A DNA stretch of 61,334 bases, filler included. It is 14 parts of 14 records of this genome, joined end to end, with 100 filler letters (N's around TTAATTAATTAA, not from the genome) between each part and the next. Parts side by side here need not be neighbours in the genome. Positions count along the whole stretch, not along the records: positions 31,931 to 36,048 come from SRR15195285_6700; 13 more parts are not named here. One strand, given 5' to 3'. A program made the position numbers and the translations under genes. The notes below the pieces were generated by a model that was not told the origin of the DNA, did no database searches, and saw only the letters and a program-made list of their open reading frames with translations. This document shows positions 3,576 to 57,898 of the stretch, piece by piece; position 1 is the stretch's first letter; the number at the start of each line of letters is the position of its first letter.

Positions 3576-3675
3576 NNNNNNNNNNNNNNNNNNNNNNNNN
3601 NNNNNNNNNNNNNNNNNNNTTAATTAATTAANNNNNNNNNNNNNNNNNNNNNNNNNNNNNNNNNNNNNNNNNNNN
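3576..3675. other. Artificial contig spacer (first of 13)
   Basis: N44-TTAATTAATTAA-N44. The others start at 8768, 12340, 18141, 22840, 26746, 31831, 36049, 39348, 44237, 50230, 54392 and 57505. Confidence 0.98.
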
Positions 3676-8767: not shown

Positions 8768-9102
8768 NNNNNNNNNNNNNNNNNNNNNNNNNNNNNNNNN
8801 NNNNNNNNNNNTTAATTAATTAANNNNNNNNNNNNNNNNNNNNNNNNNNNNNNNNNNNNNNNNNNNNAAAACCAGCGGCTCAGGGCGGTCCGCGGAGTCC
8901 CCCGCGGGTGCAATGAGGGTGCATTCGGGATCCCGGTGCCGGATCCCGGTGAGTTCTATATAGAATGTGTACTATTTACTCCACAAAGATCATCGATTTT
9001 TGGTTCCCCGCGGTGCTGGCGCTGTGGGGGCTGCTGCTGCTGTGCTGGCTGCTGCTGTGCTGGCTGCTGGTGCTGGTGGCTGCTGCAGTTGGCGGTTAGA
9101 TC

Positions 9103-12013: not shown

Positions 12014-12584
12014 TTCGCGAAGACAAAATGATTACCGTTTTTTTCGAAGTTAAAGGCGGCGACGTTGCCTTCATCGTGGCACAATAGAAGGAGCAGCAGC
12101 CGGCACAATGTTGCCAGCTAGGCTTCGCCACTGTCTAGTGGCCTCCACTAATCGACCAAAAAGGGTCTGTGAGAGGCCACAGCCGAGGGACAACGCAGAA
12201 CGTCCCGCTGAACCTTGTCATCGGCACATGGCTGATTTCGTAAACACGACTGAAACTCAAGTTGCTCCCGTCCTACACCGCTGCGCGCTGTCACCATCAC
12301 TCTGCCGACGTGCTGTCTTGCCTAGGACACTGCACTACGNNNNNNNNNNNNNNNNNNNNNNNNNNNNNNNNNNNNNNNNNNNNTTAATTAATTAANNNNN
12401 NNNNNNNNNNNNNNNNNNNNNNNNNNNNNNNNNNNNNNNGGGGGGGGGGGGGGGGGGGGGGGGGAAGTGATCACTTGAACACGGACGGTGGTGTGGTGGC
12501 CAGCAGCTGTAGCAGCGTGTACACACGGCTGGCCACCTGGCTGGCTACGGAGGAGAGGGGAGGGGAGGGGAGGGGAGGGGGGCG

Positions 12585-17488: not shown

Positions 17489-18383
17489 TTCCGATCTCGC
17501 CCCGTCTAACAGATGCCACTACTACTGGCAAACGATAGACGGGGCGAGATTAGGATGGCCGGCCAGCGGCTGTTGTACGGCTCTGTTGGGCGTTCCGAGG
17601 GGCGCGATCGAGTCCCAACACGCATAGCTCGGATCTCTGAGCGGCGCGGGGGCGCCGGAGCAGCCGCTGACAAGCTGTCGCTGGGCAAAGACGGAGCCGC
17701 GCGCCCGGAAAATCGCTAAACCGGCGGCGGAAACTGCAGCGGAATCGCGCCGCGCTCGCTGCCGCGGCTGCCTCGCCCCGCGCCGCCCCGCCGCGCTTCG
17801 GAGCCGCAGCCGGCACCCTCAGCGCCGCTTTCCACCGCGCGGCAGCCCCCGCTCAGCCCCCGGGGCGCCCCGCCAGCAGCGCCGCCTTCGCGGGCGTCGC
17901 CACCATCTCGGCGGCCTTCGTTGTCTTCACGGACCGCTGACGTTGGGGAATCCACCAGAAATCGAAGAAATGCAAATGTGGATTCCAATTGATTGTAGAT
18001 GTGCATTCCCGCGCCGCCGCCAGTACGCTTGTTAGGCCTCTGGTCTTACGTTGGAGAAAGTGGCAGTCCGAGAGCGGCCCCGCTATTAGTTCTCCCTCGA
18101 GTCGACTTCACCTACGAAGTCGATTCGCATTCCTCTCAATNNNNNNNNNNNNNNNNNNNNNNNNNNNNNNNNNNNNNNNNNNNNTTAATTAATTAANNNN
18201 NNNNNNNNNNNNNNNNNNNNNNNNNNNNNNNNNNNNNNNNAAATCATGTCCACCCTTTGTAACTGGTTGCGCGGCAGACTTGACAGGCGGGCAGGCTGCT
18301 CTCGCTGCTAGCTAATCTTGTTTCTCTAAGCTCCATATCGCGGTATCGCTACACGCTCCGGCGCCACGTGACGCGCAGCGACG

Positions 18384-22723: not shown

Positions 22724-23096
22724 GTGGGCTCACGACGGGATCCGGGCGATCGCGCGCGCGCGCCGGCGCGACCCCTGCTAGCTGACGCGACGCGCCGCGC
22801 GCGGCGGCGGCGGCGGCCGGCGCCGAGGGCAAAACGCTCNNNNNNNNNNNNNNNNNNNNNNNNNNNNNNNNNNNNNNNNNNNNTTAATTAATTAANNNNN
22901 NNNNNNNNNNNNNNNNNNNNNNNNNNNNNNNNNNNNNNNTCTCTCTCTCTCTCTCTCTCTCTGCGTGTGCGTGTGTGCCTGTGTCTCTCTCTCCCTCTGT
23001 CTCTCTTTATACGAGCTCGTGCAGGGGCTCGTCTCTGTGCTGCTTCATGCACCCAAGGCCAGCACCTGACCCGACGCACCCGCGCACACGGGCGCA

Positions 23097-26538: not shown

Positions 26539-26970
26539 ACCCGCGTCTGGCGCTGGGGTCGACAACTCCCCCCTTCCGTCCGCCGGCGCCTGCGCTGCCG
26601 CGGCTGCGTGGCCGGCCGCCACCTGACCAAACGATGACCTCATGCAGCGTCCAGCGAGCGCCGGAGAGCGCGCGTGGTGACGATATGATATTTGATAAAT
26701 GATAAATGCAAAATGGGAAAAGTGCCAATTTCGCCACAAAATTTCNNNNNNNNNNNNNNNNNNNNNNNNNNNNNNNNNNNNNNNNNNNNTTAATTAATTA
26801 ANNNNNNNNNNNNNNNNNNNNNNNNNNNNNNNNNNNNNNNNNNNNTGCTGCTGCTGCTGCTGCTGCTGCTGTCATCCTTCGTCTGCAGATATGCTGCGTA
26901 AAGCTTCAGCATAATCCCTACGTCTGTGTAAACCACATGCAGTGAGCGGCGTGGCTCCTACAGCACGCTC

Positions 26971-29419: not shown

Positions 29420-29815
29420 TTCGATCAGGTCCTCAGCGCCACGCTGGACGGAGCCGGCGTTCCACGCGTGCGCACGCGCACTCGCCACTCGCGCCTTCTT
29501 CCCCTCGCTCTCGCCGGCTCTGCTGCGCTAATATGTTGTACATTATATATATCTAGGATACCCGCCGTACGTACCGCGCGCGCGCGCGCGGACGGCATCG
29601 ATATGTATCTCTAGCGAGGGTTTTTCTATAGGATATCCGATAGGAAGCGCTTTGCAGTTAGTCGCGAGCCTCGTCGCTCGTGCGGATACGACGTCCGCGC
29701 GAGTCAGCCTGCACGGCTACAGTATCCGTGACGCTATTATACGTCGCACCCTCCGGAACAGCAGTGCCAGTAGACCTGCGCGTGAGGGCGAGCGAGCTCG
29801 AGCCGTGAAGTTGCT
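29420..29815. promoter_or_regulatory. Probable bidirectional promoter with (CG)n tract
   Basis: About 400 bp between the divergent PhyH-like and nucleoside hydrolase starts; CGCGCGCGCGCG next to ATATAT/GTAC/ATCGAT/CTAG motifs. Confidence 0.5.
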
Positions 29816-30930
29816 ATGATTCGCACCATGGGCGGCCTTATGACTGCCGCCTGTGCGATTTTCAACCAGTTGGTAGGGATCTCTGGTGCTGCCAGTGCCA
29901 CCAAGCTGATCATTGACACCGACATGTCCACGGACTGCGACGACGTCGGGGCACTGTGCATCGCCCACGCCCTCGAGCAACGAGGCGAGGCGGAGCTGCT
30001 GGCTGTGGTGCATGACACAGGCGTCTCGAGTGGCGTCGGAGCTGTGAGTTCAATCAACCACTGGTACGGGCGGGATGATCTGTTGATCGGTGGCTACAAG
30101 GGCGATTATGACAAGAACGTCCATGGCTCCTACATCGATGACCTAGTTGCAAAGTTTCCAGCGGCTGTCACAAATCTCTCTCAGGTGCCAGATGCGGTCG
30201 AGGTCTATCGGCGGGCGCTTGCTGCCGCCCCTGACAGCTCCGTCTGGATCTCGTCCATCGGGTTCACGACGAACATCGAGATGCTGCTGAAGAGTGAGGC
30301 TGATGGCATCTCCCCGCTGAACGGCACCGAACTGGTCAAAGCGAAAGTCCAAGGAATCGCCTGGATGGGGGGCGCTTATCCCGCTTCCGTGAAACCGAAT
30401 CCAAACCCAGAGCACAACTTTGGTTACCACCAGATCGGGCCCTCCACTGCGTTTTCCGTCAACAATTGGCCTCGTTCCGTACCGATCGTATTCTTGGGCT
30501 GGGAGGTCGGCAACAAAATTCAGACTGGTGGGGTTATGACAAAGGGCACGCCACCCAATAACCCGTGCAGACAGGCGTACATTGATCATAGTGGCGCGGG
30601 CAACGATCGCTCTAGCTGGGTGAGTTCGAACCGCCTACGCACGATGGCATACACCACGGGAGTTGGAGGGTATCTCAGTCTGACTCTGGTGCTGATGTTG
30701 GTGCCTCGAATTAGGATCCTGCGACTACGCTGTTCGCAGTTCGGGGCGCGGGTAATTTTTATAGCTTGCATGGCTCCGGACACAACCTGGTGAACGCCAC
30801 GACAGGAGCAAATGAGTGGACCGAGGAGGGCGAAGGGTGGCACCAGAGCTACATCATACAACAGAGCTCTACAGATGCAGTAAGGAAGGCTATCAACGAG
30901 CTGCTGCTTGACCCTCCCAAGCGGGACTAG
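29816..30930 (+). CDS. Secreted nucleoside hydrolase-like protein (inosine/uridine-preferring family)
   Basis: LIIDTDMSTDCDDVGAL, SIGFTTNI, WMGG, EHNF; intron ~30620-30714 gives RSSW|DPATTLFAVRG. Confidence 0.88.
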
Positions 30931-31063: not shown

Positions 31064-31507
31064 TCAACACAGCCTACATGGCCACGCGTGCACGTTGCAG
31101 CAAGGCTTCAACGGTACCGGTCTCGGTGGCGCTGTCTCACACACGTCACCGCTGTAGCCTCCAGCACATTTACAGCTGCCAGCCGCGCAGGCGCCGTGTG
31201 CCCCACAGTTAATCCCCCAGCACGCATCCGTCTCGTCCGCTTGGCAAGCAATCACAAGACGCTCGAACGCATCGGCGGCTTTGCCTAAGACACTCGCGCA
31301 ATCGTTGAAAAACGGGAGCGCAACCTGCGCGCACTCCACGGTGCAAACACCAGGTACCCCAGTCCTGCATTGGGGATCGTCGCAGCACGCTGCATCGACG
31401 ACAACGGTTCTCTCCTGCAGGTTGTTCCCCGTACACGTTTCGCCAGCCACTCGCGAGAGCAGCAGCGCATGTGACAGGGTGGCTAGCCACCACAACAAGA
31501 GGCGCAT
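31064..31507 (-). CDS. Small secreted Cys-rich protein with EGF-like domain
   Basis: MRLLLWWLATL signal; CC..C..GVP..C..ECA..PFFNDC module; CWGINCGAHGACAAGSCKCAGGYSGDVC. Confidence 0.7.
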   Translation of the reverse strand: MRLLLWWLATLSHALLLSRVAGETCTGNNLQERTVVVDAACCDDPQCRTGVPGVCTVECAQVALPFFNDCASVLGKAADAFERLVIACQADETDACWGINCGAHGACAAGSCKCAGGYSGDVCETAPPRPVPLKPCCNVHAWPCRLC

Positions 31508-31930
31508 CGGTATCCCGCTTTTCTTCCGCTGGCACGGCTCAGAGAAGGAGCCAACGCGCGGTCTCAACGGTCCCGCGGCCGCCGACGTTCCAGCGCAGTA
31601 GTCCAGAGGGTCTCCCGAACGCAATGAGATGCAGGATGCAACACCCAGTCCACGCCCTCCCGCGCACGTCCTGACTGGCAGCGCTGACTTCACACGGACA
31701 GGCAGCAGCGTCGGTTCTATACGTACGTCTCGCTCCTGAAGTGGCTACTGAAGCTCCGGGCGTCCGGCGGGGGCGTCGTCGCGCGTGTACACACATGCAT
31801 ACCCAGTGATTTTTAGCGATGCATGAGCGANNNNNNNNNNNNNNNNNNNNNNNNNNNNNNNNNNNNNNNNNNNNTTAATTAATTAANNNNNNNNNNNNNN
31901 NNNNNNNNNNNNNNNNNNNNNNNNNNNNNN

Positions 31931-34900
31931 CTCGACGTTTCTGACAAACAGCAACCTGGGTCCGGGCGCTGGTGTTCTCTATGCCCTCACTGGATCATCA
32001 ATCGAGGTGTCACACTCACACTTCAAGAGCAACAGCGCCACATACCACGTGGCGCAGCCAGGCACACGCGTCAAGAGTGCTTCGGTCGTGGTGCTTGAAG
32101 ACTCAGTGATGACTGTTGAAGGCTCACAGTTTGAAGATAATGATGGTCCAAATGTCATCGTATCGACTTCATCTACTCTGGACATAGCCAACACAGCCTT
32201 TGACAGGAACACATACTCACAGATGGTCGCGGCACAAGGCAGTCGGCGACGACTCTCGGAGGCTGAGATTCCCACCATGCAAAGTGCTACCATATCTCTG
32301 TGGTCGGATTCCGTGGCCACACTGGCCCACTCTCGATTCACAGACAACATCTGCTGGAGTGCTGGGGCGCTGTTTATCGCCAACGCAGGCACATCCGTCA
32401 ACTTCGATCACGTGACCTTCTCTGGCAACCAGGCTTCCTCACCCGACTCCGCGGCCGGCGCGCTACACATCAGCGATGGGGCCTCTGCTGTAGGCACACA
32501 CGTGGCGTTCTCTGACAACGCCGCAGCGTCGCAGTGGGCAGCTGGCGCTGTTTATGCCAGCTTGGCCAGTGTCACTCTGTCCGACGCTGTCTTCAACTCC
32601 AACCAGGCTGAGCCTCACTCAACCGCAGGCACACGCGCCGGCAGCGGCGTGCTCTATGCGGACAGATGTGCGGTACGCATCAGCCGAACCACCATGGAAG
32701 ATAATGGTGCCAGCGGCGCTACTGCGCTCACCGCAGCTAACTACGCGGACGCGCTCAACGTGCTGATGCCAACGCATGTCGAGTTGACGGACACAGCTAT
32801 CAGGCCGATGCTGTATGAAAAGACTGTGGCAATCTCGCCAGGCTCACTTGCAGGTGTGATTCAGGGAGGCTGCGACCAGCACCCTTGTGCGCTGGGTTCC
32901 TCTTGCAGATACGCGAACTACTCGACGACCTGTACTCCCTGTACTGGTATGTCCTACAGCTCCGATGGCATCACGTGCCAAGCTTGTCCACCCGGCCTCG
33001 GTCCGAACGAGGACCAGACCAATTGCCAGCCATGTATCGGCAACAATCACAGCACATTCGGTGTATGCCTGCCTTGCCCGAATGCTCAGATTGTAGTAGC
33101 CGGCAAAACCCGATGCGCCACGTGCCCGTTGCGCCAGACTGCTGTTGCTGCAGCATCTAGCGATGTTGCTCGCAAGTGCGGCTGTGCGAATGGCTTTCAC
33201 AACGCATCCCAGCAGCTGTCCGCCTGCTTCGACGGTGGATATGACGCAGGAGAATATCAGGCAGCCCTTGCCGAGCACGATACGGAGATCAACGGAGGAC
33301 AGCTTTGCGAGCACTGTCCCACTGATGCACTGGGTCAGGCATGCTTTGAGTGTGCGACGGATACGGGGACGACCATCGCCGCAGGCTATACCATACCACA
33401 GCTAATCAGCACTGATTCTCGGCGCTCTCTGCAGCAGACCGAGAGTCCGATTCAGCTTGCATTTCGATGCCACAATGATTTCGATCTCGCGATCATCCGC
33501 TGCCCGGCTGACCCACCCACTCCAGGAGAGTGCAGTCTCGGCTATCAGGGCTATCTGTGCCAGACCTGTGCTGAGGACTATGGAATGATGCCATCACGGC
33601 TTTGCGAGCCTTGCGCGGGGACTGGATTCACAACGAAGTCGATGCTCATGCTTGCAGCTATCATTGCTGGACTGATTCTGGTAATCGGCATCGGAATCAA
33701 GTACTGGAACAAGTTCCCTTACAAGCTGGCGGTTCGATGTGCGTTCCAGCCCATGCGGATTGTCATCACTTATGCTCAGGTGACGTCTCAGCTCGGTGAA
33801 GTTCTCTCCTTTCAGTATCCACCTGCGTTTGACGCCGTCATCGATGCCATTCGTCCGATTATGGACGTGTGGGGCTTGTTGTTTCGAGCACTCGGGAGCA
33901 GCGAGTGTTTCGGCCTCATCGGCTTTACCAGCAAGTGGACACTGCGAGTTGTTGTGCTGCCAGTGATTCTTGCGTTGATCGTCGCAGTAGTCTACTGCAT
34001 CGAAAAAGGGAGCAAACCAGACAAGGCCGGGAGCCACGCGAAGGGCAACATGTTCTTCGCCATTTTCTTCGTGAGTGTTCCCAGTCGTTTTCATGCTGTT
34101 CGTGCTTCTGCATAATTTTCGTCTGACCTGGTTTCGTTGCGTCGACAGTGCTACCCAACGATCTGCACGGTAGCGTTCGCCGCGTTCCTGTGTCGGTCCC
34201 TGACACCCACCGCCAGCGTCCTTGAGTCCGATGACAGGATCTTGTGTGAGGACTCGGGTCACACAGTCATTCGGGCCCTCTCCTATATCGTTGTCGTCCT
34301 GTTTGCATGTGGCCTACCGCTTGCGTTCGGTTCCATCCTGATACGTAAAGCCAGAGTCTACCAACGAGATACCGAAGGCTCAAACGTGGCGCTGGCGAAG
34401 CAGGTTGCCAAAGACCTGAAGGTAGACGAGAAGCAGGCCTCTTACGTCATCCGGGACATCACGATTGGCGAGGATTATAGTTTTTTAATGGATGCTGTGC
34501 GTGCACACACTTCCATCTGCCCGTTGCTTGTTGTTCACAGACGTTTTCTGACACATTATCTGTGATGTGCGTACAGTACGTGCCCGCGTATCTCTACTGG
34601 GAGGCACTGGACATGCTTCGAAAGCTGGCACTGGTGGGGCTTGTGTTGGTGGTGGGGCGAGGTAGTATCGCTCAGCTGAACTGCGCGCTTCTGCTGTCGT
34701 TCGGTTTCTTCAGCCTCCAGTGTACTGTTCGTCCGTACAAGATTGCGGAAGACAATGCGTTCCGGGCGATCACCGAGTGCCACGTATTCATTGTCATTGC
34801 TTCAGCGCTGACACTGCAGAAGACTGATCTAACCAGGGAGGTGATGACCGCAAGCGCGTACGACTGGACTCTTTTCACGTCGTTCATCGTCATGGTTCCG

Positions 34901-36048
34901 ATTGCATTCGTGGTGACGGTGGTTGCAAAGGTGAGACACGTCCACTACGTGCTGGGCCAGACTGAAAGCCCATCGAGGAATTCATTCGATCGATGCGTCG
35001 TGGGCCTTGAGACAGAAGCAGATGTCGACACACTGAAAGTGTATCTGGAAGCGATGCGGATGGAAGTTGCTAGCGCAGATTTTGCGCAGGTTCTTGATGG
35101 CACGCAATGGGCGACCAAGAACAGAGGCTCAGTGTCAACTCGTAGTGCCGCCTCCAAGGGTTCGGACTCAGATACAGATGATGACGAGACTGCCGCGATG
35201 GCTGGGGTAGAAGAGGCACAGGAAGCAAGGGCACAGGAGCCACTCATCTCTGCTGGATCAAGTGCATCAAGTGTTGACAAGGACTCCGACCAAGGTGTGC
35301 CGGACGACGGCCAGGACGTCTATTACGACAAGTTCACAGGAGGGTTTGACGGCACGTTTGCTGACCTTTCAGACTTTTTTGGTGGTCTGGAGAAGATGAT
35401 CGGCGAATGCCACAAGGATCTAATGGCAGCGATGGAAGACGAGCACTGCGCGGTTGCTGCTGGATACGGCGCGTCTGACGAGACCTTTGTAACATCAAGC
35501 TACCGAGTGACAACCACACCACGGGAGGAATGGCACTTTGTCGTTGCGCCTGCTGTAGTTGGAGAAATGGACGCTGGGACTGACCGTGAGACTGGCAGGA
35601 GCCGCGGCACGAGAGACAAGGTATCAATCGAGAAGCTCTTTGACGAGGCGGCAGAGCTAATCAGCAAATCCTTCATTGATAGAGGCTTCGGCACTATCAT
35701 CACCCGAGACGATGTCCGTGAGATTGGTTTGCGTATTGAGGAGGTGATTGCCCTTCGATTGTACACCGGGCCGATGTTCGAAATCTACAATGGTCTGCTT
35801 CGTGCATATGGCAACCAGGAGTCGAGAGGCATTGTTCCAGCGTACGCATTGGTCGGCGCAGGGCAGGACGTGCGAGGGCGCTTCACCACGACTCTGCACG
35901 TGCTCAACTCGGGTGTGCTGAAGCTCGCGAAACTACAGCCAGCGATCCAGGTCTATCGTGGCATTAGTGGCATGAGGCTTCCCAAGTCCTTCACTGAGAA
36001 GAACAAGCAGAATGTTGCAGGCGGCGTCGAGTACGGTTTCATGTCGAC
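31931..36048 (+). CDS. Receptor-like protein: beta-helix ectodomain, Cys-rich repeats, multi-TM region, C-terminal ADP-ribosyltransferase-like domain (partial at both ends)
   Basis: FxxNxA/AGAL repeats; CxxC repeats; TM block (ITYAQV, YPTIC, YWEALDMLRKL, RPYK); introns 34071-34148 and 34497-34576; ALRLYTGP..YN..LR, VYRG, EYGFMS. Confidence 0.82.
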
Positions 36049-36332
36049 NNNNNNNNNNNNNNNNNNNNNNNNNNNNNNNNNNNNNNNNNNNNTTAATTAA
36101 TTAANNNNNNNNNNNNNNNNNNNNNNNNNNNNNNNNNNNNNNNNNNNNGCGCGCGGGCGGGCGGGCGGCGCGCACGGGTATCGCGATCTTGCCGCGTGGC
36201 ACGCACGCATCGATGGCTACCTTGGCGGAGAGGGCACTTAGCCTCTGTAGCACTGCAGTTTGTACAGTGTGCATCCAGTGACCGATTCAGATTCTCTGTC
36301 AGTGGGCCCTGTGGGCACTGTGCCGCGCAGGG

Positions 36333-39347: not shown

Positions 39348-39679
39348 NNNNNNNNNNNNNNNNNNNNNNNNNNNNNNNNNNNNNNNNNNNNTTAATTAAT
39401 TAANNNNNNNNNNNNNNNNNNNNNNNNNNNNNNNNNNNNNNNNNNNNTCTTGGAGTTCTTGGGTCGACCCATGAGCTTCCTGGGCCGCGGGAGTTCTTGG
39501 GTCGTAACACATGCATCATCAGTTTTCACCACGGACCACGCGGACGACGGACCAATCCGGCGGGCGGATCGGAGTCCGGGGAGTGCCTGCGACGGGCGGC
39601 GCCGGGTCAGCGATTAAATGATGGATGTGCGCGTGCATTGGCCACGGATGATGGGACCCTGAGGCAGGCGGTGGCGGCG

Positions 39680-43855: not shown

Positions 43856-44526
43856 CCTCTCACGCACCAAGCCCACACCCGCCCACTTGCCCTCCCACAA
43901 CTGCACCGCCACCGTCAAATCTCTCCCCCCGCTCGCCTCAAACACCCCCCTCCCCAAGCGTGGCGCCCGCAGAGCTCAGACCACAGCGGCTCGGCGCGAG
44001 CACATCATAGTAGGATCCTTTTCACAAACAGGCACAAACTGATTCAGAGACTTATGCACCAGATGAATAGCTAGTATCGGTGCGCACTGACCAGCTGATC
44101 TTGAGCGGGAGCGCGGCCGCCCTGGCCCTCCTCGACGAGCCCGTTGAGAAATCAGAGGCTACTACTTGATCTTGTAGGTCTCTGATTCTCTCCTCAGTGG
44201 GACATCGGACAATCACACCGTTTTTGTTGCAGGCCGNNNNNNNNNNNNNNNNNNNNNNNNNNNNNNNNNNNNNNNNNNNNTTAATTAATTAANNNNNNNN
44301 NNNNNNNNNNNNNNNNNNNNNNNNNNNNNNNNNNNNGTCAAATCACTCATTTCAACCTGGGTACAACAGTACATGTGGGATCCTACAGCCGTCTACGCGC
44401 GGGCGACGACGCCGTCTAGCTACTGCCGCGCGCGGGGCCAGAGGGCGCTCCGCCCGATCCGGCGGCGGCGCCGCCGGATCCGAGCGCTGCGCGCGTGCGT
44501 ATCGGTGCTTCCGGCTGCTTCCGGGG

Positions 44527-50229: not shown

Positions 50230-50680
50230 NNNNNNNNNNNNNNNNNNNNNNNNNNNNNNNNNNNNNNNNNNNNTTAATTAATTAANNNNNNNNNNNNNNN
50301 NNNNNNNNNNNNNNNNNNNNNNNNNNNNNAGGAATTGACTGGGTGGTGAAATCCTGAGATGTGAGAATCGATCATTTTTTGGGAATCATTTCGGCGCTCC
50401 ACTCATTTCTGCGAGACGGACAAGAACTCCAATCTCGCCATCCGCATGCATCATCCCCAGCCCCCCCTCCTCCTCCTCCTAGAAACATCCCGAAGTTCCT
50501 TGCTGGTTTAATCGGAGTCCTATTGATAGATCTAATGCGCGAAAAACACTCGAGGCGTCCGCCAGATTTCTCAGTGATTTCTCCGTACTATTGGCCGTAC
50601 TATTGACCGGGGCGAGTGGGCGCCCCTTTTTCACTCCCCCCATACAGGTGACTGCGGTGGGTGAGGAGTGAGGGCTGACG

Positions 50681-54391: not shown

Positions 54392-54710
54392 NNNNNNNNN
54401 NNNNNNNNNNNNNNNNNNNNNNNNNNNNNNNNNNNTTAATTAATTAANNNNNNNNNNNNNNNNNNNNNNNNNNNNNNNNNNNNNNNNNNNNTCCCATTTC
54501 TAACCCGTGTGAGAAAGAATGATCAATCATGTCTCAAGCGCCGGGGAAGGTTTTAGATTCCATCCCACAGGACAACGGCAATGGGCCCTGCCAACGACGT
54601 GCGCGTGATGGGGGCGATGATGGTGATGCCCAGCTGCAGGCGTTGCGAAGCAGGAGTTGCAGGGTAGAGCGGTGGCTGGCTGTGAGGGCGCCCGCCCCCC
54701 TCCGCTCAGG

Positions 54711-57367: not shown

Positions 57368-57898
57368 TGCAGACGGCACGGCACACACGCGCAGCACAGC
57401 ACAGCACAGCACAGCACACCAAAGCTGCGCTGAGAGACCGCACTGCTCCAGCACAGCGCACAGGCGCCGCAGCAGCTGGCAGGCAGGCAGGCAGGCAGGC
57501 AGGCNNNNNNNNNNNNNNNNNNNNNNNNNNNNNNNNNNNNNNNNNNNNTTAATTAATTAANNNNNNNNNNNNNNNNNNNNNNNNNNNNNNNNNNNNNNNN
57601 NNNNCTGCAGCAGGGTGCTGAAAACTCGTAGGATAAACGGAGGAGTCAGATTGGAAGCAAATATACAGAGTATGAAAAAGTCAAACATACACGCAGGAAA
57701 CAAGTACAATAGTACTAGTAAGAAAAATGTATTAGAAGTACATGTACGACTTGCTCGCAACGCTCGACGCGACGACGCGACGCGCCGGACGCGACGACGA
57801 CGGACGCGTGCGCGCGCGCGCCGCGAATCGCCGCGCGGCGGCGGGCGCGGCCGCCGACGACGACTCGCGAGGCGCCCGCTTCTCAAAGTCAAACGCGA

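Follow-up and report, generated by a model that had tools for sequence, protein, structure and literature searches.

A receptor-like membrane protein of a marine planktonic eukaryote with an ARTC-type ADP-ribosyltransferase domain in its predicted cytoplasmic tail

Mono-ADP-ribosyltransferases of the R-S-E type are known as bacterial toxins or as vertebrate ecto-enzymes, and inside eukaryotic cells, mono-ADP-ribosylation is mainly attributed to enzymes of the PARP type. The vertebrate representatives (ARTC) are small, disulfide-bonded ecto-enzymes that are either secreted or anchored by glycosylphosphatidylinositol (GPI). Signalling enzymes built in a single chain across the membrane are familiar from receptor kinases, receptor guanylyl cyclases and channel-enzymes (the TRPM7 kinase and TRPM2 with NUDT9-H). 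Here, we describe a 4118 bp contig at positions 31931..36048 (+ strand) of a window of 61,334 bases, the window being the whole stretch of DNA that was analysed. One spliced gene runs through the contig and is truncated at both contig ends, leaving an internal part. This part probably represents the middle of a very large surface protein from a marine planktonic eukaryote, a receptor-enzyme with a cytoplasmic ADP-ribosyltransferase (ART) domain.

Comparison with the described systems reveals both shared and divergent features. The best structural match is found among the vertebrate ARTCs (PF01129; rat ART2.2, PDB 1OG3/1OG4/1GXY); it includes the N-terminal helical part, and the R-S-ExE triad is common to both, although sequence identity to the model of our ART domain is only ~15%. 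Unlike an ARTC, the ART encoded on the contig is located in the predicted cytoplasmic tail of a nine-helix protein and is followed by a WD40 module, and its region contains 2 Cys in 355 residues as compared to 27 Cys in the Cys-rich stretch of the ectodomain. The ecto-enzyme characteristics, i.e. secretion or a GPI anchor together with conserved disulfides, are absent here, given the predicted topology. By sequence profile, the bacterial enzymes HopU1 (3U0J), Vis (4XZJ), Tre1 (6DRE) and ExoS/ExoT (6GNK) are nearest, with structural Z-scores of 12 to 14 and YRG, STS/T and ExE motifs in common. These toxins are secreted or injected and act in another cell, whereas the present protein is endogenous and eukaryotic, its gene contains introns, and its ART comes without a secretion or translocation module. 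With the receptor enzymes it shares a single-chain layout in which a sensor outside the cell is linked through the membrane to a catalytic domain predicted to lie inside, as does a relative whose copy of the block bears a protein kinase (P0179). The differences lie in the output, which would be arginine ADP-ribosylation, and in nine helices instead of one; no homology to those families is known outside the kinase of P0179. In our literature searches, neither an ART in the tail of a membrane receptor nor an ART-WD40 fusion was found described; the review by Aravind et al. 2015 may mention it. Judged from sequence, the novelty would reside in the architecture, an intracellular ARTC-type ART that is attached to a nine-helix receptor or channel and followed by WD40, while the catalytic domain itself is known.

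Gene model and catalytic domain

Removal of two GT..AG introns leaves a + strand frame of 1319 codons in three exons, with zero stops and open at both ends, in agreement with the one spliced frame proposed in a first-pass annotation made from the letters of the contig. Exon 1 (31932-34070; 713 codons, P0001) encodes the ectodomain, the predicted transmembrane helices TM1, TMa and TM2, and the start of TM3. After intron 1 (34071-34148; 78 nt, GTGAGT..CAG), exon 2 (34149-34496; 116 codons, P0002) supplies the rest of TM3, a hairpin predicted to lie outside, TM4, and the start of a putative cytoplasmic loop. Intron 2 (34497-34576; 80 nt, GTGCGT..CAG) precedes exon 3 (34577-36048; 490 codons, P0003), a single open frame that extends from TM5 into the cut ART domain. 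When compared to a hidden Markov model (HMM) built in this analysis from the membrane blocks of relatives, exons 1, 2 and 3 map to positions 9-121, 122-236 and 237-371 with no gap and no overlap, and the database proteins P0005 and P0006 are continuous over the exon 2/3 junction (...LMDA followed directly by YVPAYLYW...).

Splicing of intron 2 is observed in an RNA contig of metatranscriptome run X16, in which 34496 is joined to 34577 with 80 nt skipped between GT..AG ends; a contig of DNA run X1 (34096-34702) runs unspliced through both introns. RNA contigs cover most of the stretch 31931-36048, and one of run X14 spans 35446-36048 and then proceeds 202 nt past the contig end. Another joint, 32927>33060 in one X14 contig (132 nt skipped, side 21), has AC..TC ends and lies inside the Cys-rich repeats; it was rejected as an intron and read as a relative or a repeat artefact. 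TM5 to TM7, the acidic linker and the ART are all located within the one uninterrupted exon 3, and the same parts are collinear in the metagenome contig L004 (see below) and in relatives. Membrane part and ART hence probably belong to one transcription unit, as had been assumed.

The linker (35150..35329, +) is acidic and Ser/Thr-rich; among its 60 residues are 17 Asp and Glu and 3 Lys and Arg, giving a net charge of -14. It leads into the ART domain (35321..36048, +), of which approximately the first two thirds are present, comprising the N-terminal helical part and the Arg and Ser motifs, with the ExE strand beyond the contig. The motifs ALRLYTGP (35750-35773), YNGLLR (35786-35803), VYRG with the catalytic Arg (35951-35962) and the Ser motif GFMS (36035-36046) follow each other on the + strand, the last one directly before the contig end, which falls inside the next codon. 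Both the acidic linker and this series of motifs had been recognised in the first-pass annotation, and in a 40-row alignment of relatives the catalytic Arg is conserved in 40/40 and the Ser in 36/40 rows.

The last 251 residues of the fragment retrieved 23 longer proteins. P0004 shows 98% identity over these residues and 96.7% over exon 3 in full (490 residues); it could correspond to the contig's gene as an allele or strain variant, or be a paralogue. P0005 and P0006 are 94% and 82% identical to the ART part. In all three, GFMS is extended beyond the contig end to GFMS-TTT, and ...QYPHEREILLPP with the ExE motif (H-E-R-E; ...YPHEREILLPP) comes after it. The catalytic Glu, predicted to lie past the break, is thus located where expected in P0004 (97-98% identical), in P0005 and P0006, and in L004, and each Glu of ExE is found in 23 of the 28 alignment rows extending this far. 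P0004 and P0005 score 34.5 and 36.7 bits against PF01129 (cut-off 22.3) and 25.5 and 25.1 bits against PF03496 (cut-off 23.4), passing both. An exhaustive search with the ART part returned 1981 cluster representatives at E ≤ 1e-3, 694 of them at E ≤ 1e-10.

An AlphaFold model of the ART part of P0004 was obtained with high confidence (predicted local distance difference test score, pLDDT, 93.6; predicted template modelling score, pTM, 0.92). Foldseek matched it to 134 PDB chains at E ≤ 1e-3, including HopU1, ExoS, ART2.2, C3, Tre1, Vis, VIP2 and SpvB. With VIA-align, rat ART2.2 ranked first (Z 16.1, root-mean-square deviation 3.3, 211/223 residues aligned, model residues 11-338), followed by HopU1 (Z 14.1), Tre1 (13.7) and ExoS (12.9); 153 chains reached Z ≥ 8. 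As the alignment with ART2.2 extends from model residue 11 to 338, it takes in the conserved N-terminal region (GGLE..IG....EH....TTP.EW), which is considered part of the ARTC-like domain. A profile search against PDB sequences gave HopU1 (9.9e-7), Vis (5.6e-6) and Tre1 (5.6e-4). The ART fold suggested earlier is therefore supported by solved R-S-E structures; the domain is real, and its fold and catalytic residues are complete in near-identical and related proteins. Arginine is the specific target of the ExE enzymes ART2.2, HopU1, Vis and Tre1, and because these are the nearest solved relatives, arginine is by analogy the most likely acceptor.

In P0004 and P0005, the ART is succeeded by a helix and connector and then by a WD40 propeller (PF00400, E 3.7e-23 and 9.8e-23), and WD40 is listed in 14/23 of the longer proteins that match the last 251 residues. 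The window contig ends before the WD repeats, and none were detected on the other window contigs. Among metagenome contigs, four loci were found, none of them a near-identical extension across the 3′ contig end. One, the DNA contig L004, is 54-65% identical and collinear, and carries on one piece of DNA the Cys-rich region, the membrane block, the linker, an ART with STT (GFMSTTT) and H-E-R-E, and the first WD repeat. A second, L001, matches residues 583-1102 of P0004 at 92% identity. The WD40 module after the ART was absent from the first-pass annotation, as were the likeness of the membrane block to PF06011 and the exchange of effectors among relatives, both of which are treated below.

Ectodomain, membrane block and the wider family

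The N-terminal part of the fragment comprises a right-handed beta-helix region (32073..32720, +), matched by Pfam Beta_helix (PF13229, E 3e-11, residues 121-263) and NosD (E 1.1e-4, residues 48-152). It had previously been called a Pmp-like beta-helix; the beta-helix holds, whereas the Pmp label is loose as Chlam_PMP gives only E 0.15. Further downstream, a Cys-rich region of the Ephrin-receptor-like or TNFR-like kind (32883..33617, +) contains the anticipated CxxC repeats, i.e. 9 CxxC motifs and 27 Cys within exon-1 residues 300-565 (266 residues), with weak Pfam matches to DUF7630 and TNFR_ELAPOR1. The orthologue P0171 is 68% identical to exon 1 over 656 residues, matches Ephrin_rec_like (E 5.7e-10), and extends upstream of the beta-helix by Ephrin-receptor-like repeats and a discoidin/NedA-like galactose-binding domain. 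P0171 and P0006 come from one assembly node and are consequently regarded as a single orthologue that the gene caller split in two inside the membrane block. The split lies at the intron-bearing region within the block and not between block and ART. Judged from P0171 and P0006 together, the full protein may comprise roughly 2800 residues.

The multi-helix membrane block proposed at the outset is evident from hydropathy, with seven clear peaks at a threshold of 1.5. TM1 (33642..33698, +; peak 2.86) is read as crossing from outside to inside and is followed by the basic stretch KYWNKFPYKLAVR. TMa (33750..33812, +), a helix P.RI.ITY.Q...L..VL that is conserved in the alignment of relatives, is read as returning to the outside. 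The subsequent helices, all on the + strand, are TM2 (33948..34004; peak 2.84); TM3, a hydropathy peak divided between exon 1 (34056..34070) and exon 2 (34149-34190), where the consensus FF..F.CYP.IC crosses the exon 1/2 junction in relatives; TM4 (34287-34343) within exon 2; and, within exon 3, TM5 and TM5b (34613-34657 and 34667-34720), TM6 (34760-34816) and TM7 (34871-34927). The stretch immediately after TM7 is basic. An AlphaFold model of P0172, a 667-residue homologue that contains the whole block (pLDDT 80-95 in the block, pTM 0.69), adds two helices to the hydropathy count, one after TM1 (model helix 144-178, corresponding to TMa) and one from a split of the long fifth segment.

On the basis of this model, the block is read as passing the membrane nine times, from an outside N-terminus to an inside C-terminus. 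The family-average net charges of the five predicted inside loops are +2.5, +2.4, -0.7, +0.6 and +1.5 (4/5 positive), while those of the four predicted outside loops are -0.8, -3.5, +0.9 and -3.2 (3/4 negative). P0013, P0175 and P0178 start with signal-peptide-like N-termini, read by eye. Together with the EF-hands and the WD40, ankyrin and kinase tails of relatives, these data are consistent with a cytoplasmic tail, so that the cytoplasmic position originally ascribed to the ART agrees with both the model and the loop charges. Foldseek with the block model returned zero matches in the PDB at E ≤ 1e-3, and in VIA-align (48,161 chains) the best hit was Flycatcher1 with 102 residues aligned at Z 7.5. 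No fold is assigned, as this value is within the stated noise band for helical proteins. Single-sequence matches of exon 3 to PDB sequences (the S6 region of the TRPV 'Inactive', E 0.9, and a NavAb chimera, E 2.3) were dismissed as chance.

By HMM, the membrane block is present in 14/23 of the longer matches and in 14/150 of the best ART representatives. The latter figure is a rough lower bound, many representatives being fragments, and four of them had been used in the HMM. The block-bearing ART representatives are all among the closest relatives. In ART family members at a greater distance, the block is missing, and leucine-rich repeats (LRR; P0021, P0023 and P0024), ankyrin with EF-hand, or LanC-like domains are present.

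Around the block, both ends of the protein vary. The ectodomains of relatives include a PDC sensor (P0013), FG-GAP (P0175 and P0176), the discoidin/galactose-binding domain of P0171, and a combination of MAM, LamG, DUF7495 and beta-helix in the 4162-residue P0040. On the cytoplasmic side, ART-WD40 is exchanged for ankyrin repeats and a protein kinase in P0179, or for another conserved tail in P0174, P0177 and P0178. A constant membrane core with varied sensors and swapped effectors is the pattern of a receptor family. From its domain content, with ankyrin and a Ser/Thr-Tyr protein kinase in the ART-WD40 position on the same block, P0179 is a receptor-kinase version of this family. The tail of P0174, P0177 and P0178 (..HFTDLDSA.LI..S.GIRAS..GQLGGGVS..) is without Pfam match at E ≤ 10; it may constitute another effector domain.

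Proposed mechanism and competing explanations

In the mechanism we favour, the beta-helix and Cys-rich repeats would form a ligand- or glycan-binding ectodomain. The order from outside to inside would be ectodomain, nine-helix block, acidic linker, R-S-ExE mono-ART of the ARTC/ART2.2 type, helical connector and WD40 propeller. An event sensed by the ectodomain or by the membrane block, such as ligand binding or membrane stretch, would alter the activity or the accessibility of the cytoplasmic ART, and the latter would then move ADP-ribose from cytosolic nicotinamide adenine dinucleotide (NAD+) onto arginines, either in the receptor itself or in proteins that the WD40 propeller holds. The outcome would be a receptor-enzyme that writes ADP-ribose in place of phosphate. 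From the architecture we infer that ectodomain or block control the ART and that WD40 recruits the substrate; ligand gating and a role in signalling or defence, as put forward in the first-pass annotation, are likewise conjectural.

Several observations weigh against this reading. The cut ART fragment itself scores 12.2 bits against PF01129, below the cut-off of 22.3, and the ExE strand and the WD40 module lie outside the window, being borrowed by sequence similarity from a 97-98% identical protein. To our knowledge, no activity, substrate or ligand has been established for any family member. At the RNA level, no joint was seen for intron 1, where cover is nearly nil (depths of 3, 0 and 0 in three RNA runs for bin 34002-34139), and no RNA contig spans both membrane block and ART, nor the whole gene. 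Moreover, record 21 of RNA run X15 (34417-34613) is unspliced over intron 2 and carries 16 differences as well as 2 gaps. It might stem from a variant, from pre-mRNA or from DNA carry-over; this contig and the X14 joint at 32927-33060 are probably relatives or repeat artefacts. The topology is a prediction. TMa is only weakly hydrophobic and falls below the 1.5 threshold, the homologue P0172 that provided the membrane model shares only ~26-33% identity with the contig's lineage, and the charge pattern has exceptions in the long TM4-TM5 loop and the three-residue TM5-TM5b turn. Finally, as the block is without a solved structural match, the structural comparison does not separate a receptor from a channel.

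This last point opens the main rival to the receptor-enzyme. Here, the block would be a Ca2+-permeable and possibly stretch-activated channel similar to Pkd2/TRP, with the ART-WD40 tail either tuning the channel or being switched by Ca2+. We consider this explanation the less probable one, and still a serious competitor. Sub-threshold matches to PF06011 (TRP) recur among relatives and always on the same profile region (P0179, 1.1e-6; P0010, 1.1e-5; P0013, 0.0025; P0174, 0.0081; P0177, 0.031; also weak in P0178). The nearest ESM Atlas clusters of the block include carriers of PF06011 and Ephrin_rec_like from haptophytes, ciliates and chlorophytes, and in one nearby cluster PF06011 is found in 25% of members. 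These similarities suggest that the block is distantly related to the fungal Pkd2/TRP-like family, to which Pkd2 of Schizosaccharomyces pombe belongs. In a preprint, S. pombe Pkd2 is described as nine-helical, its N-terminal domain lying outside and its tail in the cytoplasm (10.1101/2022.08.11.503631), a layout that the contig's protein shares, its own sidedness being predicted. A second paper describes the calcium permeability of Pkd2 as activated by membrane stretching (PMC9727806). The ectodomain of Pkd2 is Ig/ML-like and lipid-binding, whereas a beta-helix and Cys-rich repeats are found here, and its tail is a disordered coiled-coil where the tails of the block relatives carry enzymes.

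The EF-hand pairs adjoining the block, between TM1 and TMa in P0016 and between TM7 and ART in P0040, would fit a channel and hint at Ca2+ control in these two paralogues. Conversely, no relative reaches the PF06011 cut-off (P0179 comes closest with 28.2 bits as compared to a gathering cut-off of 28.5), and the window's own three pieces give no match at E ≤ 1. Solved channel folds do not match the block model. The large, variable ectodomains with lectin-like and sensor domains suit ligand recognition at least equally well.

A defence or suicide device, in which the ectodomain detects a pathogen, a virus or a foreign cell and a toxic ART depletes NAD+ or mass-modifies an essential protein, is a more remote prospect. 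After ART2.2, the nearest solved relatives are bacterial toxins and effectors (HopU1, Tre1, ExoS, Vis and C3). The ART family is large, with its 1981 representatives; its members are fused to repeats of the immune-receptor type, i.e. LRR in the three distant proteins named above, ankyrin (P0025) and WD40; and the ectodomains of relatives vary strongly. ARTs are effectors of apoptosis and immunity systems, as stated in PMC8195603. Against defence, the stretch occurs in RNA libraries of two studies that have no known infection context, and a viral contig collection gave 39 pattern matches, none of which was confirmed as a relative.

That the ART faces outward and modifies surface proteins with extracellular NAD+, in the manner of the vertebrate ecto-ARTs, appears highly improbable. 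The top structural match, ART2.2, is an ecto-enzyme, and one miscounted helix would flip the side of the tail. Still, in relatives the same tail position holds WD40, ankyrin, kinase and EF-hand domains, and the scarcity of Cys in the ART region, the loop charges and the basic stretch right after TM7 all favour the cytoplasm. Equally improbable are a gene-model artefact, with membrane part and ART as separate genes, and an inactive pseudoenzyme scaffold: gene callers did divide the orthologue into P0171 and P0006 and no RNA contig covers the entire gene, but TM5-TM7, linker and ART share an exon, the division sits inside the block at an intron-bearing region, and relatives retain the catalytic R, S and ExE residues.

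Occurrence and biological meaning

The stretch or part of it is present in 19/23 listed public runs from 13 studies, including six RNA runs; presence in an RNA library does not equal proof of transcription, and DNA carry-over may contribute. The runs that carry it are without exception metagenomes of marine, seawater or estuary origin. For the ART part, the closest ESM Atlas clusters belong to eukaryotes, haptophytes being the most frequent, with taxa available for few members. In prokaryote genomes, only one 23-residue match was obtained; a single pattern was searched, which makes this weak evidence of absence. The match lies on a contig of a proteobacterial metagenome-assembled genome (L005:128-196) and is 74% identical to the LRLYTGP..YN region; it could be due to a mis-binned eukaryotic contig or to chance. 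Where the family's proteins have a database name at all, it is 'WD40 repeat protein' or 'hypothetical protein'.

The window consists of 14 unlinked contigs of 3.0-5.9 kb each, joined by N..TTAATTAATTAA..N spacers at 3576-3675, 8768-8867, 12340-12439, 18141-18240, 22840-22939, 26746-26845, 31831-31930, 36049-36148, 39348-39447, 44237-44336, 50230-50329, 54392-54491 and 57505-57604. Owing to the artificial spacers on both sides, neighbouring window sequence is not the genomic context of contig 31931-36048, and since the contigs are unlinked, readings that use genes across a spacer as context are invalid. The other 13 contigs contain no paralogue and no missing gene ends. The contig placed just before 31931-36048, to which it is unlinked, has a long open frame (29786-30793, +) that includes ..IIDTDMSTDCDDVGALC.., which we take to resemble an inosine-uridine nucleoside hydrolase motif. 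A second open frame of 226 codons (31064-31744, -) is Cys-rich with a hydrophobic N-terminal stretch, and its product may be a small secreted Cys-rich protein.

Taken at its widest, the finding would amount to a third class of one-chain transmembrane signalling enzyme in eukaryotic plankton, beside receptor kinases and cyclases: a Pkd2/TRP-like nine-helix receptor-channel whose cytoplasmic ARTC-type ART modifies WD40-docked targets on arginine, with Ca2+/EF-hand control in some paralogues, ADP-ribosylation as the receptor-proximal signal, and the vertebrate ecto-ARTs as a secreted offshoot. We regard this extended view as tentative and, taken as a whole, rather doubtful. To the toxins and ecto-enzymes, the contig adds an ARTC-type domain that is apparently hard-wired inside a surface receptor or channel and equipped with a WD40 docking module. 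The block-bearing ARTs form a distinct subfamily within nearly two thousand cluster representatives, and the occurrence of the same block with a kinase or an unassigned domain in relatives is a natural experiment in effector swapping, while the ART-WD40 tail provides a concrete, clonable test object. For abundant marine protists, the architecture suggests a signalling or defence route that operates through receptor-coupled arginine ADP-ribosylation. If the extended view is true, a widespread marine lineage would use ADP-ribosylation as a primary intracellular signal close to the receptor, and the vertebrate ecto-ARTs would descend, as a secreted branch, from a eukaryotic family that was intracellular in origin.

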